Source: Alphaproteobacteria bacterium
GTDB taxonomy: Bacteria > Pseudomonadota > Alphaproteobacteria > CAAHEQ01 > UBA3637
NCBI GenBank assembly: GCA_017540065.1
Contig: JAFYBU010000081.1
Span: forward strand, 1-31,994
DNA: 31,994 bases
Direction of reading: 5' to 3'
Shown here: positions 1 to 5,192 of the stretch, piece by piece
How the letters are laid out: every line of letters begins with the position of its first letter
Numbering within the stretch: position 1 is the first letter of the stretch
The notes under the pieces: model-generated
Told to the model about the DNA's origin: nothing
What the model saw: the letters and a program-made list of their open reading frames with translations, nothing else
Databases searched by the model: none
Made by a program: the position numbers and the translations under genes

Positions 1-942
1 ATTATCCAAACATTCTTCACATATGCGCTTATCGCTACACCAAGGTTTACCTAATTTATCTTTTTCATCTTCACACCCTCTGGAATATCCGCCGGGTTGG
101 ATATCATGTGGAATACAATCAACACACTTATGGGTTTCCAAATCACACGCCTTTCCCGGACAATGGGCATCCTCTAAACATTCCACACAAGTATTTGTAT
201 GTTTTTCAGGATCCCCTGCATCACAATAAGTTTTGTCCGGACATTTACAAACACCACATTCATTTAATTCGGATTCTTTACAACAATTGTGGTGTTTATC
301 TTCGGTTGTTCCTTCGGGACAGAACCAACATTTCCCATCATAGTGATAGCTGGCCGTTGACTTAGGACAATTTCCGCCCCAAATTAAAGCCATAAAATGG
401 GTCCCCGTACGTTGCTCATTGCAAACTTCATCTATAATTTGCTCTTTTGTCTTCCCGGCCATTTTAGATAACCTTTTTTGTTCATTTCCGTCCAGTTTTT
501 TACCATTCAAATATTCTGACCCGATGGCAATCTGTTTACCTGCACCTACATCATACAAAAGGGAATCAAAAGCCCCACTGGCCAAAATTTCACGACAGGA
601 ATTATCTGTTATATTATTCACTTCGACTTGATAAGAATCCGTATAATTAGCAGAAACACTAACCCGGCCGTGATTCGCTGTTATCATTGTGACGGCATCT
701 TCACGTTCTGCTTCAGGATAGACGTTCTTCAAAAGTACCTTTTTATCATGACGAGGTTTAACACGGTTCAAACCATAACGTATACCAACTTCTGCCACCT
801 GCTTTACTGTTTGTTTATCTTGGTGTTTTCTGAGAATAAAACTGTACCCCAGTAATCCCGCAATTGTCAAAATAGCAATGATGACCAAAACAGCCAAAGT
901 TTCAAGCAATGAACGCCCAGTTTGTTGTGATTTTTCGCGCAT
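1..942 (-). CDS. Type IV pilin-like N-terminus fused to a Cys-rich repeat region (truncated by the window edge; not in the ORF track)
   Basis: Hand translation from ATG 942 (RBS GGAGG at 949-953) is open for 314 codons down to base 1. It starts MREKSQQTG|RSLLETLAVLVIIAILTIAGLLGY, followed by about 20 Cys in the last ~130 residues (e.g. TCVECLEDAHC, KCVDCI, ICEECLDN). Confidence 0.9.
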   Translation of the reverse strand, partial: MREKSQQTGRSLLETLAVLVIIAILTIAGLLGYSFILRKHQDKQTVKQVAEVGIRYGLNRVKPRHDKKVLLKNVYPEAEREDAVTMITANHGRVSVSANYTDSYQVEVNNITDNSCREILASGAFDSLLYDVGAGKQIAIGSEYLNGKKLDGNEQKRLSKMAGKTKEQIIDEVCNEQRTGTHFMALIWGGNCPKSTASYHYDGKCWFCPEGTTEDKHHNCCKESELNECGVCKCPDKTYCDAGDPEKHTNTCVECLEDAHCPGKACDLETHKCVDCIPHDIQPGGYSRGCEDEKDKLGKPWCSDKRICEECLDN

Positions 943-976
943 AGAAAACCTCCTGAATATACGTATACTCAAGCAA

Positions 977-1005
977 CGTATAACACATTTTTTTAGCCTT
1001 GACAA
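977..1005 (-). promoter_or_regulatory. Sigma70-type promoter for the Cys-rich pilin-like gene
   Basis: TTGTCA (1005-1000), 17 nt spacer, TATACG (982-977) with an extended TGn. Confidence 0.55.
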
Positions 1006-1029
1006 GAAATTTTTTGGGAAAAACATAAA

Positions 1030-1329
1030 AAATGAGGCCGTTCTGTTGCTAGGCCGACCCCTGCCCCACTAAAGCGTACAAATAGCTTTAGAATCAGTCG
1101 TTGCATCAGACGCTGTTAAGCGGCCATTGCAACAGGTGCAAAATTATCGTTTGCATCTATTTTTTTCAGCGCGATAACGGTGCTACCATACCGGATACCA
1201 AGCGAAATCTTTACTATGCGTGTCAACGCTATTTCGCCCCCGTTGGTGGAGGCGTCGGGTACCGCCCCCGAGTCCACTACATCTATTCCATTTGCCGTCT
1301 AGTATCATAGTCCTTGATAAATCAAGAAC
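1030..1329 (-). ncRNA. ssrA: Circularly permuted (two-piece) tmRNA
   Basis: Minus strand: the acceptor piece ends ...GACTCGGGGGCGGTACCCGACGCCTCCACCA (CCA at 1246-1244), then the coding piece starts GGGGGCGAAATAG (1241). The acceptor stem GGGGGCG/CGCCTCC has the G3.U70 Ala determinant. The tag ORF 1154-1116 reads ANDNFAPVAMAA*. Outer ends are approximate. Confidence 0.95.
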
Positions 1330-1335
1330 AATATA

Positions 1336-1363
1336 ATTATAGCATATTTTAAAGAAATGTCAA
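1336..1363 (-). promoter_or_regulatory. Consensus sigma70 promoter of ssrA
   Basis: TTGACA (1363-1358), 16 nt spacer, TATAAT (1341-1336) with an extended TGn. Confidence 0.8.
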
Positions 1364-1417
1364 CGAAAAGAGGGATTCTGCATCAAACCAAAAATGACGT
1401 CTGTCATTTAACCAAGC

Positions 1418-1864
1418 TTAACAGGGATCATAAATACGATCCTCATCAGCAACGTCATCACAACAACGCCCATTTTCGCGTTGCACGCGAGGATTATAGA
1501 TGCCGCCCGTTCCGGTTTTTTCCCATTGACACTGCGGGAAACTGGTTCCGACCAATCCTTTTATTTCCGCACAATCTTGTGTAAATTTGATTTTAACAAT
1601 ACCGTTTGTTTTGGCGGTAATCGTATCAATACAATCAGACAATTCCCCATCAATCATAGAGTTAATCTTATCTTTTGTAAGAGTCATTCCATGTGTCATC
1701 GCATACGTGGATGCCAAAGAAATTGTTTCGGTTATATCATTTGCTTTCATTTTTTGCATAGCTTTACGAAAACCTGACAAACCGCCTATGGTAATAATAG
1801 CGGCAATGGCCAGCACAGCCAACATTTCAATCATTGAACGCCCCAAATCATTATTTTTTTGCAT
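1418..1864 (-). CDS. Type IV pilin-like protein (148 aa, 6 Cys)
   Basis: MQKNNDLG|RSMIEMLAVLAIAAIITIGGLSGF: Gly -1, Glu +5, hydrophobic helix. GGAGG RBS. Confidence 0.9.
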   Translation of the reverse strand: MQKNNDLGRSMIEMLAVLAIAAIITIGGLSGFRKAMQKMKANDITETISLASTYAMTHGMTLTKDKINSMIDGELSDCIDTITAKTNGIVKIKFTQDCAEIKGLVGTSFPQCQWEKTGTGGIYNPRVQRENGRCCDDVADEDRIYDPC

Positions 1865-1884
1865 TTTCTGCCTCCTTGTGTTTT

Positions 1885-1913
1885 CAATATATCCCCTTTA
1901 TATAATATAGTCA
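1885..1913 (-). promoter_or_regulatory. Sigma70-type promoter for the 1864 pilin
   Basis: TTGACT, 17 nt spacer, TATATT on the minus strand. Confidence 0.55.
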
Positions 1914-1965
1914 AGAGATTTCTTTTATTATCCAAGGCATCATTCAGATAAAAAACACAAAATTA

Positions 1966-1981
1966 TTAACAAAAGGTTAAC
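1966..1981. promoter_or_regulatory. CtrA-type binding site
   Basis: TTAA-CAAAAGG-TTAAC matches the alphaproteobacterial CtrA consensus TTAA-N7-TTAAC. It lies between divergent pilin genes. AT-rich DNA makes chance matches possible. Confidence 0.5.
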
Positions 1982-2141
1982 AAATTAAAAAAAGTTGAAA
2001 ATAGGGCTTGATTTTTCACTGAAAAAGGTCAAGAGTGGACTTCGTAAGATCTCCCCAAGGGGGAAGCATAAAGCGATTTATGTACCCATAAGGGAGGTAA
2101 AAGTTAACTTTTACAAAAGTAAAAAGAAAGGAAAATTTAAA

Positions 2142-2543
2142 ATGAAAACAAATGAAACAGGCCGTTCAATGGTTGAAATGCTGGGCGTTTTGGCCATTAT
2201 CGGTGTTTTGTCTGTGGCCGGTATCGCCGGATACACACAGGCAATGAAGAAAAACAAAATCAATAATGCTGTTGCAGAAATTTCTATGGCAGTTATTTTA
2301 GCAAAGACAGGTAATGGTGGTGAAGGGCTTACCTCTGGTGGCACTGCCAATCTTTCCGATTTAGGCTTTAACGGTAAAGTCCTCACAGCAGCAACCATTG
2401 CAAATGAAAATGGTGAGAAAGATTATAAAGTTTCCGGCATCACTGTGAAAGAATTGGATTGTACAGACTTGACAAGTGTAGCTCCAAGTGTAGCACGTTC
2501 ACCTGCAGCCACGAAAGCCGGTTACTACATCGACTGCGAATAA
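2142..2543 (+). CDS. Type IV pilin-like protein, candidate major pilin (133 aa)
   Basis: Start reassigned from 1995 to ATG 2142 (AAAGGA RBS). MKTNETG|RSMVEMLGVLAIIGVLSVAGIAGY. Two C-terminal Cys (DCT...DCE), as in a pilin D-region. Confidence 0.9.
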   Translation: MKTNETGRSMVEMLGVLAIIGVLSVAGIAGYTQAMKKNKINNAVAEISMAVILAKTGNGGEGLTSGGTANLSDLGFNGKVLTAATIANENGEKDYKVSGITVKELDCTDLTSVAPSVARSPAATKAGYYIDCE

Positions 2544-2670
2544 GAAAGGAGAATGAAAATGAAAAATAATGAAACAGGTCGTTCAATGGTTGAAATGCTG
2601 GGCGTTTTGGCCATCATCGGTGTTTTGTCCGTGGCCGGTATCGCCGGATATTCCATGGCAATGAAGAAAA
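2151..2670 (+). repeat. Two near-identical 103-nt pilin 5' segments (2151-2253 and 2568-2670)
   Basis: Manual alignment gives 8 mismatches in 103 nt. The first 84 nt differ only at 4 synonymous third positions. The sequences diverge downstream. Confidence 0.85.
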
Positions 2671-2987
2671 TTAAAGTGAATGATATTTTGTCAATTGCTT
2701 CACAATGTTCCATCTTGGCCCGCACCTATCAAGGTATCGGAGCAACCACAGCAACTTCATGTACTGCTTTGGGTATTGATCCAGACGAAATTCCATCAGG
2801 GATTTCTTCAGCCTCCTTTACAGGAAAATTTGAAGAGGCAGTAGCTGGACAAAACGGACATCCTGCTAGAGTAGTAGTGAATTTGACTGCAGAAGATAAT
2901 AATCAATGCAGCCAATTGAAACAAATGGTTGCAAATACTAGTACTTGCAATGGTAGTGCTGCCACACTTTACTTCCTTATGGATTAA
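2559..2987 (+). CDS. Type IV pilin-like protein (4 Cys)
   Basis: MKNNETG|RSMVEMLGVLAIIGVLSVAGIAGY. ATG 2559 has better spacing to AAAGGAG (2545-2551) than ATG 2553. Confidence 0.9.
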   Translation: MKNNETGRSMVEMLGVLAIIGVLSVAGIAGYSMAMKKIKVNDILSIASQCSILARTYQGIGATTATSCTALGIDPDEIPSGISSASFTGKFEEAVAGQNGHPARVVVNLTAEDNNQCSQLKQMVANTSTCNGSAATLYFLMD

Positions 2988-3001
2988 TTTCAATCCGTAT
3001 C

Positions 3002-3036
3002 AAAAAAAGCATCCCGTTTTTGCGGGGTGTTTTTTT
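3002..3036. terminator. Intrinsic terminator after the pilin pair
   Basis: A7, stem GCATCCCG/CGGGGTGT, then a T-run. Confidence 0.8.
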
Positions 3037-3050
3037 ATGAAAAATCCCCC

Positions 3051-3079
3051 TTGCATCAAATAAAAAAATATGCTATACA
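3051..3079 (+). promoter_or_regulatory. Sigma70-type promoter for the 3104 pilin
   Basis: TTGCAT, 17 nt spacer, TATACA with an extended TGn. Confidence 0.6.
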
Positions 3080-3103
3080 AATTTCATTAAAGGAGGAATT
3101 TTC

Positions 3104-3523
3104 ATGTTTCAAAAATCGCAACAATCCGGTCGTTCAATGATTGAAATGTTAGGCGTTTTAGCCATTATTGGCATTTTGTCCGTGGCCGGCATTGCCGGAT
3201 ATACTCAGGCAATAAAGAAAAATACAGTAAACGATATTCTTTCAGCGGCAACCACGTGCGCTATTTTAACCAGAAGTTACAAGGGTGGCGACATCGATGT
3301 GGGGAAAAATTGCACAGATATCGGTTTAGAACCCGAAGCTATCCCCAGCGGTGTTTCCATCACGGGAAAATATGATGAAAGTCAAAATATAGTAACCGTC
3401 ACCGTAACCGCACAAAACGAAGAACAATGTTTGGCTGTGGCTGCCGGCGCAAAAGGACGCAGAGATAATTGCGCTACCATCGGGGGATATAAAACAGATA
3501 TCATCACCAATTTTAATGATTAA
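3104..3523 (+). CDS. Type IV pilin-like protein (139 aa, 4 Cys), paralog of the 2559 gene
   Basis: MFQKSQQSG|RSMIEMLGVLAIIGILSVAGIAGY. AAGGAGG RBS. Shares VNDILS, C-x-IL-x-R-x-Y, C...G..P..IPSG and a later QC with the 2559 product. Confidence 0.9.
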   Translation: MFQKSQQSGRSMIEMLGVLAIIGILSVAGIAGYTQAIKKNTVNDILSAATTCAILTRSYKGGDIDVGKNCTDIGLEPEAIPSGVSITGKYDESQNIVTVTVTAQNEEQCLAVAAGAKGRRDNCATIGGYKTDIITNFND

Positions 3524-3540
3524 AATATTTTCAGCCCAAT

Positions 3541-3569
3541 AAAAAACCCGCCATAAGGCGGGATTTTTT
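3541..3569. terminator. Bidirectional terminator between the pilin and efp
   Basis: A6-CCCGCC-ATAA-GGCGGG-A-T6. Confidence 0.85.
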
Positions 3570-3582
3570 AATCATTACCTGT

Positions 3583-4146
3583 TTATTTTGCGCGTTCCAC
3601 GTAAGAGTTGTCAATGGTGGAAACAACAATCTTTTCACCCGCATTCACAAACGGAGGAACCGTGGTACGAATCCCGTTTTCCAAAACGGCAGGTTTATAC
3701 GAAGATGTTACAGTTTGATTCTTTAAGGCCGGTTCTGTTTCCGTAATTGTTAAAACAACATGCGGCGGTAAATTCACGGAAATGGGTTTCCCTTCAATAA
3801 AATTCACTGTAACAGGCATATTATCTTGCAAATAAAGAGCTTTATCACCCATTGTTTCTGCCATAATTTCAAATTGATCATAGGTTTCGGAATTCATAAA
3901 GCACAATTTTTCACCTTCACGATACAAATAGGTGCAATCAAATTCTTCACTCATCAACTTTTCAACCGTATCAGCCGTGCGCCAACGTTGTTCTGTCTTT
4001 AACCCGGAATCTACACCACGCATTTCCACTTGGATAAAAGCGCCACCCTTACCCGGGGTAATGATGTTAATTTTGGTAACCAAGTATTGTTTACCGTTGT
4101 GTTCAATAACCCAGCCGGGTCTGATTTGGTTTGCTTGTTGTTTCAT
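3583..4146 (-). CDS. efp: Elongation factor P
   Basis: N-terminal KOW-like IRPGWVI, PGKGGAF loop with the modifiable Lys, and YKPAVLENG...VPPFV..GE.I motif. Confidence 0.97.
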   Translation of the reverse strand: MKQQANQIRPGWVIEHNGKQYLVTKINIITPGKGGAFIQVEMRGVDSGLKTEQRWRTADTVEKLMSEEFDCTYLYREGEKLCFMNSETYDQFEIMAETMGDKALYLQDNMPVTVNFIEGKPISVNLPPHVVLTITETEPALKNQTVTSSYKPAVLENGIRTTVPPFVNAGEKIVVSTIDNSYVERAK

Positions 4147-4214
4147 GTTAAATCCTTTCTTGCAAAAAATGATGAAAAGGATTATACTCTAATCAGAAAG
4201 GAAAGTCAAGAAAG

Positions 4215-5192
4215 ATGTGGTGGAATCCCGAAATTTACATGAAAAATGCACCGTTGCGCCAGGCACGCGGAAAGGTCATCCAAACAATACGAAAATATTT
4301 TAATCAACAAGGATTGATTGAAGTGGATACCCCCGCACTGCAACCTGCACCCAGTGATGAAGTTCATTTGAAATGTTTTCAAACCGGCGATTTTTATTTA
4401 CATACAAGTCCGGAATTGGCCATGAAAAAATTATTGGTGGCCGGAGAAAAGGCTATCTTTCAAATTTGTCACACTTATCGGGACGAACCCGTTTCCGATA
4501 CACATTCCCCTGAATTTACAATGTTGGAATGGTATCGCACGGGAACTGATTATTCAGCCATGATGAAAGATACTGTTAATGTAGTCAGAGCGTGTGCTAA
4601 AGCGTGTAACGTCAAAGAATTACGCCATAATGAACGGACATGCAATCCTTTTATAAAATGGCAAAAACTGACGGTCGAACAAGCTTTCAAAAAGTACGCT
4701 GATGTTAATTTGTGGGCCAAGGATTTACGGGCTGAAGCCGAACGCGTCGGTATCGAATGTTCCGATAATGATACTTGGGAAGACATTTTCTTTCGGATAA
4801 TGTTAAATAAAGTGGAATATAAATTAGGAGATAACGCGCCCACCATTTTGTGTGAATACCCCACTCAATTAGGGGCTTTGGCACGAACAAAACCGGGAAA
4901 TCCGCACGTTTGTGAACGCTTTGAAGTATATGCATGCGGTGTGGAATTGTGTAATGCTTTTTCTGAATTAACTGACGCAAAAGAACAACGGGAACGTTTC
5001 CAGGCCAATTACGCTGAACGTAAACGTTTGTACGGTTGGGATGATCCGATGGATGAGGATTTTTTGAACGCTTTGGAATATGGAATGCCGGAAGCATCGG
5101 GAAATGCTTTGGGCGTAGATCGATTGATTATGCTGATTACCGGCGCCGAAAAATTAGCCGATACGCAATGGGTTCCTTGCAATTTTCGTTAA
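4215..5192 (+). CDS. epmA: EF-P lysine (R)-beta-lysyl ligase (LysRS-like, lacking the anticodon domain)
   Basis: LHTSPELAMKKLL, YRDE...HSPEFTMLEWY, ERFEVY..GVEL.NAFSEL and GNALGVDRL motifs. Divergent from efp. Confidence 0.93.
   Translation: MWWNPEIYMKNAPLRQARGKVIQTIRKYFNQQGLIEVDTPALQPAPSDEVHLKCFQTGDFYLHTSPELAMKKLLVAGEKAIFQICHTYRDEPVSDTHSPEFTMLEWYRTGTDYSAMMKDTVNVVRACAKACNVKELRHNERTCNPFIKWQKLTVEQAFKKYADVNLWAKDLRAEAERVGIECSDNDTWEDIFFRIMLNKVEYKLGDNAPTILCEYPTQLGALARTKPGNPHVCERFEVYACGVELCNAFSELTDAKEQRERFQANYAERKRLYGWDDPMDEDFLNALEYGMPEASGNALGVDRLIMLITGAEKLADTQWVPCNFR

Follow-up and report, generated by a model that had tools for sequence, protein, structure and literature searches.

The stretch of DNA analysed here (the window, 31,994 nucleotides) is the whole of contig C70 in a metagenome-assembled genome of an uncultured gut alphaproteobacterium, an assembly of 662 kb in 103 contigs that is 59.7% complete and has a GC content of 39%. 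At its left end, on the minus strand from position 942 to position 1, lies a frame of 314 codons with no stop codon. This frame, absent from the list of open reading frames (ORFs), had been picked out in a reading of the sequence alone, and it is confirmed by our analysis. Because the window is the entire contig, the frame exits the assembly and not merely the window, and we annotate it as a partial coding sequence (1-942, minus strand) whose 3' end is missing. Its start codon is the ATG at 942-940, preceded by a ribosome-binding site, AGGAGG (949-954, minus strand), with a spacer of 6 nucleotides. We refer to the product as P0001, and we favour, with moderate confidence, the view that the frame covers the 5' end of a gene encoding a modular, type IVb-like minor pilin, displayed on a pilus as an adhesin.

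The true length of the gene is not fixed by its closest relatives. In a set of 5.8 billion proteins the nearest sequence is P0002 (56%), and none is closer at full length. P0002 has 317 residues and an odd Lys/Leu-rich tail that ends 7 bases short of the end of its contig, and P0003 has 431 residues followed by an in-frame TGA and then nine open codons (QMKQACNPD) up to the contig end (L008 1782-1811), such that its stop may be an in-frame interruption rather than a natural end. A tblastn search of the source assembly with the tails of four relatives found no continuation contig for P0001, and the first 200 bases of the window have no second copy elsewhere in that assembly. Logan contigs from the source run and from two further runs likewise stop at or near window position 1. 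At the other end of the frame, a 342-codon version starting at the ATG at 1026 was rejected, as this start falls within a transfer-messenger RNA (tmRNA) gene (1025-1340) and the additional residues are absent from homologues.

Parts of the P0001 sequence recur in contigs of three gut metagenomes that are independent of one another, and the comparison lists no differences inside the gene. Coverage is low (a word depth of about 4-8x). Window positions 296-452 are matched without a difference by a 157-nucleotide contig from a metatranscriptome library of sheep gut, which is a hint of P0001 transcription but not proof. Separately, one Logan contig of the source run links position 397 to position 679 with 284 differing letters between them, and its flanking matches are only 21 and 46 nucleotides long. 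This variant of 398-678 may represent a diverged allele or a paralogue of the pilin head from the same sample.

The pilin module and the cysteine-rich neck

P0001 begins with a short charged leader ending in glycine, MREKSQQTG, followed by RSLLETLAVLVIIAILTIAGLLGY, so that the mature protein would start with RSLLE and carry glutamate at position +5. This fits a class III (prepilin) signal peptide, in which such a leader precedes about 20 hydrophobic residues. Both Gly9 and Glu14 (+5) are invariant in 12 of 12 homologues, and the leader codons M1-G9 (916-942, minus strand) are predicted from sequence and homologues to end at a prepilin-peptidase cut after Gly9. Arginine at +1 is found in all eight pilin-like ORFs of the same genome, and GR[ST] is nearly universal at this junction among the family representatives. 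An AlphaFold2 model built with 12 sequences has a mean predicted local distance difference test score (pLDDT) of 82.4, and about 90 in the head. It places a helix at residues 10-58 and a sheet-containing head to about residue 190, followed by small hairpin modules. On the basis of this model (secondary structure by DSSP) and the structure searches below, we assign residues 10-190 (373-915, minus strand) to the alpha-1 helix (10-58) and the sheet head (59-190) of a pilin, the latter with an invariant Cys116/Cys174 pair. The sequence-only reading had called a pilin N-terminus and a globular region of about 150 residues, and both calls hold, the second as residues 59-190.

The structural matches converge on pilins of the type IVb group. 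An exhaustive VIA-align search returned TcpA (8uhf, Z 6.4) and CofA (9iuf, Z 6.3) at the top, both aligned over residues 9-189, and many pilins below them, including CofB (Z 4.1) and TcpB (Z 3.6). Among Swiss-Prot models the best matches were BfpA (E 2.5e-4) and TcpA (E 1.3e-3), followed by seven R64 shufflon (PilV) proteins with E values of 4e-3 to 2e-2. Proteins annotated as 'PilS N-terminal domain' were recovered from the AlphaFold DB clusters (E 8e-5), Bundlin/PilS clusters were among the structural matches in the ESM Atlas, and Foldseek against the PDB gave a weak match to PilS (E 0.03) and nothing else. The best of these matches to residues 1-190, TcpA, CofA, BfpA and PilS, are pilins of about 190 residues that lack an extension, and their sequence identity to P0001 is just 9-15%. 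Type IVb pilins are large, at about 180-200 residues, and typically carry a leader of about 13-30 residues. The pilin module of P0001 is about 180 residues long, with a leader of 9. As judged from the model, residues 1-190 are a type IV pilin module whose fold is closest to that of the type IVb pilins.

Beyond this module the protein is rich in cysteine. Residues 192-314 contain 19 cysteines in 123 positions (15.4%, against 1.12% in the long ORFs of the same genome; binomial P about 3e-16), in keeping with the dense cysteine run described in the earlier reading. Of the 21 cysteine columns, 17 are conserved across at least 11 of 12 homologues, even though identity outside the N-terminal helix is just 26-36%. 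The first part of the run, which we call the neck (residues 191-252; 187-372, minus strand), was delimited from the homologue alignment and the models and follows the pattern CP..Y.Y.GKCW.CP.G..ED..G.CC...CG.C.CP...C...C. Eight of its cysteines (C205, C208, C220, C221, C229, C232, C240 and C252) occur without exception in the 12 homologues, and its pLDDT is 77-87 in the P0001 model and above 90 in that of the full-length relative P0009. From the alignment, we take the neck to be a signature of the P0001 subfamily.

The neck leads into C-x-x-C units that begin at C252 (CVEC), C273 (CVDC) and C308 (CEEC). The claim of recurring units in the sequence-only reading is thus correct with regard to the three starts, but only residues 252-276, CVECLEDAHCPGKACDLETHKCVDC (115-189, minus strand), make up a complete canonical unit, which we recognised from NCBIfam and from the pattern that it shares with the units of the relative P0058. 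The second (residues 273-308; 19-126, minus strand), located by regular expression and alignment, is a long-loop variant that is conserved in P0003, and the third (CEECLDN; 1-21, minus strand) is cut by the contig end. At least 11 of 12 homologues retain each of the cysteines C273, C276, C302 and C308.

These units resemble those of a myxobacterial repeat family, as the earlier reading had suggested. The NCBIfam model TIGR04201 (Myxo_Cys_RPT) matches P0001 residues 251-268 with 22.3 bits (E 9.8e-5), which is under its curated cut-off of 25 bits, and it matches 7 of 44 long relatives at E<=0.01. When relatives are scored singly, P0058 (85.4 bits over seven stretches) and P0022 (33.2 bits) both exceed the cut-off. 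The TIGR04201 repeat has about 22 residues and three invariant cysteines (PMC3325183), and unit 252-276 is of this kind. In addition, two relatives align to the cysteine-repeat part of the Myxococcus receptor TraA (TraA positions 305-445) with 62 and 44 bits, against a cut-off of 750 for the full TraA model NF033759, and a TraA cluster is among the structural neighbours in the ESM Atlas. A likeness to the eukaryotic EB and Dickkopf domains had also been proposed, but this found no support. Pfam gave no EB or Dickkopf match to P0001 at E values up to 0.1, none at E<=0.05 in eight long relatives and paralogues, and none at E<=0.001 in 44 family members. The sole trace of Dickkopf comes from Foldseek, which weakly matches P0001 (E 3e-3) to one bacterial protein with the automatic name 'Dickkopf N-terminal'. 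More generally, nothing was returned for the cysteine region by Pfam (P0001 and 44 long relatives), by a PDB sequence search or by an ESM Atlas feature search. A lack of homologues, or cysteine spacing that is not conserved among them, had been named as grounds for abandoning the earlier reading. Homologues are many, and the spacing is kept.

A gene family in small-genome gut bacteria and its candidate pilus machinery

A profile search of 1.84 billion cluster representatives recovered 62 clusters of homologues (clustering at 50% identity) with E<=1e-30. The majority represent proteins of 800-1300 residues with about 10% cysteine, or 80-130 cysteines per protein, and their public records read 'hypothetical protein'. 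The last 220 residues of 53 long members split into at least eight unrelated classes, two of which carry vWA-like DxSxS...TDG motifs that Pfam does not call in either class. Head and neck are matched in full in each of 20 genomes from the genus, where one or two copies of 850-1300 codons are usual and some copies lie in tandem. For the 15 remaining genera of the order the match is limited to the pilin part, which again belongs to long frames. In the model of P0009, the head and the neck are confidently predicted and the stalk is patchy.

P0001 has the make-up of a modular pilin, with a pilin module (residues 1-190) followed by a non-pilin neck and TIGR04201-like units. Modular pilins are known as a widespread class (PMC8179133), and the present design occurs in every genome of the genus that was searched. 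The description of this fusion as unusual in the sequence-only reading is thus apt with respect to the described literature but not with respect to modular pilins as a class. We did not find the family described in the literature searched, and what is new is a modular type IVb pilin that is grafted with a TraA-type cysteine stalk.

The source genome encodes three more pilin-anchored, cysteine-rich ORFs that belong to other subfamilies, and all are broken at contig ends. They comprise 450 residues with 32 cysteines on contig C16 (L004), 639 residues with 69 cysteines on C51 (L002), and 796 residues with 47 cysteines on C53 (L003), the last with a weak Pfam match to Giardia variant-specific surface proteins (VSPs; E 4e-6). 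The end of contig C12 (L005) repeats the 5' cassette of the C16 ORF.

A pilus machine of the appropriate type is encoded in the same genome. On contig C95 (L033 1460-12366), genes for a TcpQ-like protein (Pfam TcpQ, E 1.8e-18), a secretin (Secretin), a PilO-like protein (PAP_PilO, E 2.4e-25), a 644-residue ATPase (T2SSE, E 4.8e-65) and a platform protein (T2SSF) stand in a row, and by its gene content this is a type IVb pilus operon of the R64 PilL-R or TCP kind. No pilin gene lies inside it. The operon is followed, on the opposite strand, by a cell-wall hydrolase gene and a terminase-large-subunit-like ORF. The genome also has two genes for DsbA-like proteins (Thioredoxin_4; C60:8069-8491 and C24:20435-20908).

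Relatives are titled 'Alphaproteobacteria bacterium' (UBA3637, UBA3650), and the organisms that hold them come from bovine, sheep and other gut metagenomes. The order consists of a single family with genomes of about 1-2 Mb. The host of P0001 probably belongs to the group known as Rs-D84 or 'Candidatus Enterousia', whose members have been described as reduced, partner-dependent bacteria of farm-animal guts that lack most biosyntheses and possibly live off other cells (PMC12306168).

Proposed display on a pilus and the competing readings

In the mechanism that we favour, P0001 would enter the inner membrane, where the prepilin peptidase of the lineage would remove its leader after Gly9, and its cysteines would be oxidised in the periplasm by the DsbA-like proteins. 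The mature protein would then join the pilus via its alpha-1 helix. The tip, or a site close to it, is the most likely position, as for TcpB, CofB and PilV, because a long C-terminal extension does not fit the filament body. The cysteine repeats would form a thin, rigid and protease-resistant stalk that presents a C-terminal binding domain, the part missing from P0001, and several paralogues with different ends would confer alternative binding specificities on one pilus machine. We infer the adhesive role and the tip position by analogy and from the C-terminal domains of the relatives. The large minor pilins of type IVb systems are associated with the pilus tip and start its assembly (PMC5207764), the variants of PilV serve as alternative adhesins (PMC9045228), and modular pilins have been modelled as pilus caps (PMC8179133, PMC10628169).

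The closest parallels are PilV of R64 and other IncI plasmids, TcpB of Vibrio cholerae and CofB of enterotoxigenic Escherichia coli. Like P0001, these have a type IVb pilin module with Glu5, and their long C-terminal extension carries the binding function, just as a long cysteine-rich extension follows the module in the P0001 family. PilV also presents several C-terminal variants on one constant handle, and the P0001 module matches the PilV shufflon models over residues 1-189. However, no sequence homology extends past the pilin module, and the stalk of the P0001 family has about 10% cysteine, whereas the extensions of PilV, TcpB and CofB consist of beta-repeat or beta-sandwich domains. The variants of R64 PilV arise from invertible cassettes, whereas those of the P0001 family are separate genes, and shufflon-like repeats are absent from window positions 1-3600, a result that covers the available 5' part of the P0001 gene. 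In contrast to all three of these proteins, the P0001-family genes lie outside the pilus operon, and the leader is short (9 residues in P0001) with arginine at +1.

Two other systems share parts of this design. The modular pilins of Streptococcus sanguinis (PilB with a vWA module and PilC with a lectin module; PMC8179133) likewise join a pilin to grafted modules and have been proposed to be pilus-capping adhesins, and the vWA module of PilB has a possible counterpart in the vWA-like DxSxS...TDG motifs at the ends of some P0001 relatives. These proteins are type IVa-like, occur in a monoderm and have a short linker, whereas the P0001 family places a long cysteine-rich stalk between handle and head. 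Myxococcus TraA, in turn, has in common with P0001 the TIGR04201 unit pattern C-x2-C-x5-C-x4-C-x6-C, and its repeats are taken to be disulfide-bonded and have been proposed as a rigid stalk that carries a variable recognition domain (PMC3325183). The polarity is reversed, however, given that TraA has a Sec signal, an N-terminal PA14-like head and a C-terminal MYXO-CTERM anchor. TraA also lacks a pilin module and comes from a different phylum, and P0001 scores under the TIGR04201 cut-off. With a pilin module in place of the PA14-like domain, P0001 is not a member of the TraA receptor family (NF033759).

Several points weigh against pilus display of an adhesin. The processing, assembly and binding of P0001 are all predictions from its sequence and models. 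Its match to Pfam N_methyl reaches 14 bits, under the cut-off of 21.2, and it does not match the Pfam models PilS (PF08805) and Bundlin (PF05307) at E values up to 0.1. Given that sequence hidden Markov models (HMMs) remain under threshold, the type IVb assignment leans on structure and context, and the fold scores are moderate (Z about 6; Foldseek PDB E 0.03). The 9-residue leader is below the classical type IVb length, and +1 is arginine. A prepilin peptidase (Peptidase_A24) was not found in the 59.7%-complete source genome; among 15 genomes of the genus, 14 encode one. The C-terminal part of P0001 is missing and a binding head for it is only assumed, while the C-terminal domain of P0009 was not predicted (pLDDT below 35) and the C-terminal heads of the family have no assigned fold. 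The contig from the RNA library could be contaminating DNA. Finally, neither DsbB nor VKOR was found in five genomes of the genus (the source genome and four near-complete congeners), and the habitat is a reducing gut. Such a negative result is surprising in cells that produce proteins of about 100 cysteines.

Among the alternatives, the one that survives best, while still unlikely, is that the prepilin N-terminus serves as an export and anchor signal only, and that the cysteine-rich protein is tethered to the inner membrane or envelope and never polymerises. The genomes of this bacterial family hold pilin-like genes by the dozen, with up to about 50 matches per 1-Mb genome, which is beyond the evident need of one pilus. 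Sub-threshold pilin HMM scores and a pilus operon that contains no pilin gene point in the same direction. However, Glu+5, which is required for filament docking, is invariant, and the head shows a full pilin fold, which goes beyond a mere signal. A complete type IVb machine has also been retained in a genome of about 1 Mb.

A somewhat less probable alternative concerns the cysteines and is compatible with pilus display. The CxxC-rich modules might bind metal (Zn or Fe), as has been proposed for Giardia VSPs, rather than form disulfides. Against this stand the two DsbA-like proteins and the homologous TIGR04201 repeats of TraA, which are taken to be disulfide-bonded (PMC3325183). The AlphaFold2 model, moreover, confidently folds the cysteine-bearing part into small, compact hairpin modules, although a disulfide pattern is not readable from it. 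What keeps the metal proposal in view is the failure to find DsbB and VKOR in the five genomes, together with the weak VSP match of the C53 paralogue and the strongly reducing conditions of the ruminant gut.

We consider it improbable that P0001 is a pseudopilin-like component or a cargo of a type II-like secretion device, in which case the cysteine-rich protein would be expelled or released and would not be displayed as an adhesin. The TcpQ-like and PAP_PilO proteins indicate a pilus of the R64/TCP type, known secreted cargoes do not have prepilin N-termini, and relatives end in adhesin-like motifs such as the vWA-like DxSxS. Nevertheless, the T2SSE ATPase, the T2SSF platform and the secretin are common to type II secretion, and type IVb pili do secrete proteins such as TcpF (PMC5207764). 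Least credible of all is the idea that the frame is no functional gene but a remnant, or an artefact of assembly at the end of a contig, since the truncation of the gene, the similar placement of its closest relatives P0002, P0005 and P0012 at contig ends and the low coverage are outweighed by 314 open codons after a strong ribosome-binding site, identical sequence in three independent metagenomes, conserved cysteine columns, a confident fold, and intact relatives of 800-1300 residues inside long contigs.

A broader proposal, which we hold only tentatively, is that these genes serve a gut alphaproteobacterium with a genome of about 1 Mb, obligately dependent on a partner, as its apparatus for attachment to partners or hosts. 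One type IVb machine would here be combined with a conserved handle and neck, a TraA-type stalk and interchangeable, separately encoded heads. Such an arrangement would be the gene-family counterpart of the PilV shufflon, with a role in cell-cell recognition rather than conjugation.

It is well recognised that one pilus can gain new binding functions through modular pilins. To our knowledge, no attachment device has been described for the host organisms, which are thought to be partner-dependent. The P0001-family genes occupy a noticeable share of these 1-Mb genomes, and if their products are pilus-borne, the family becomes a candidate for the device with which these uncultured gut bacteria cling to a host or a partner. 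Display on a pilus would also represent a second, independent use of the TraA-type cysteine stalk, and would provide a test case for the production of proteins dense in disulfides (or bound metal) by an anaerobe in which DsbB and VKOR were not found. Pfam and NCBIfam recognise hardly anything in the P0001 family, and because their modules are invisible to Pfam, the published survey of modular pilins, which relied on InterPro signatures (PMC8179133), probably missed them. The P0001 copy itself adds little beyond membership in the family because its distal part is missing.

Neighbouring genes

Close to P0001 is an array of four small G/RSM[IV]E pilin genes encoding proteins of 133-148 residues (1418-3523; 1418-1864 on the minus strand and 2142-2543, 2553-2987 and 3104-3523 on the plus strand), which were recognised from their ORFs and weak N_methyl matches. 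These genes are candidates for the major or other minor subunits of the pilus. The first 40 residues of the product of the gene at 3104 are 53% identical to those of P0001. The three tandem genes share a 140-nucleotide 5' cassette (2128-2267, 2545-2684 and 3096-3235), the latter two copies being 86% and 70% identical to the first, and their 3' halves differ.

The P0001 ORF and the gene at 3104 also share an upstream element. A promoter-like 18-mer, TAAAAAAATGTGTTATAC (978-995, minus strand), forms an inverted repeat (I1) with a counterpart at 3061-3078 on the plus strand, before the pilin gene at 3104. Its general form is TAAAAAAAT[G/A]TG[T/C]TATAC, and it contains an A7 tract. No homopolymeric G/C tract suited to phase variation and no invertible promoter cassette was seen at the P0001 ORF. 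With up to three mismatches allowed to the 18-mer, there are five sites genome-wide, two of which are 25-35 nucleotides upstream of the P0001 ORF and the 3104 gene. From its sequence, the 18-mer looks like a shared extended -10 promoter element.

Directly upstream of the P0001 ORF lies the permuted tmRNA gene (1025-1340, minus strand), which encodes the tag ANDNFAPVAMAA and ends 83 nucleotides before the ORF start. A perfect TTGACA-16-TATAAT promoter with a TG is located by this gene at 1363-1336. Farther along the window, a gene for elongation factor P (EF-P; 3583-4146, minus strand) adjoins a gene for a 325-residue truncated protein resembling class II lysyl-tRNA synthetases (4215-5192, plus strand), and the arrangement across 3583-5192 is the layout of EF-P with a modifier of the EpmA/PoxA type.

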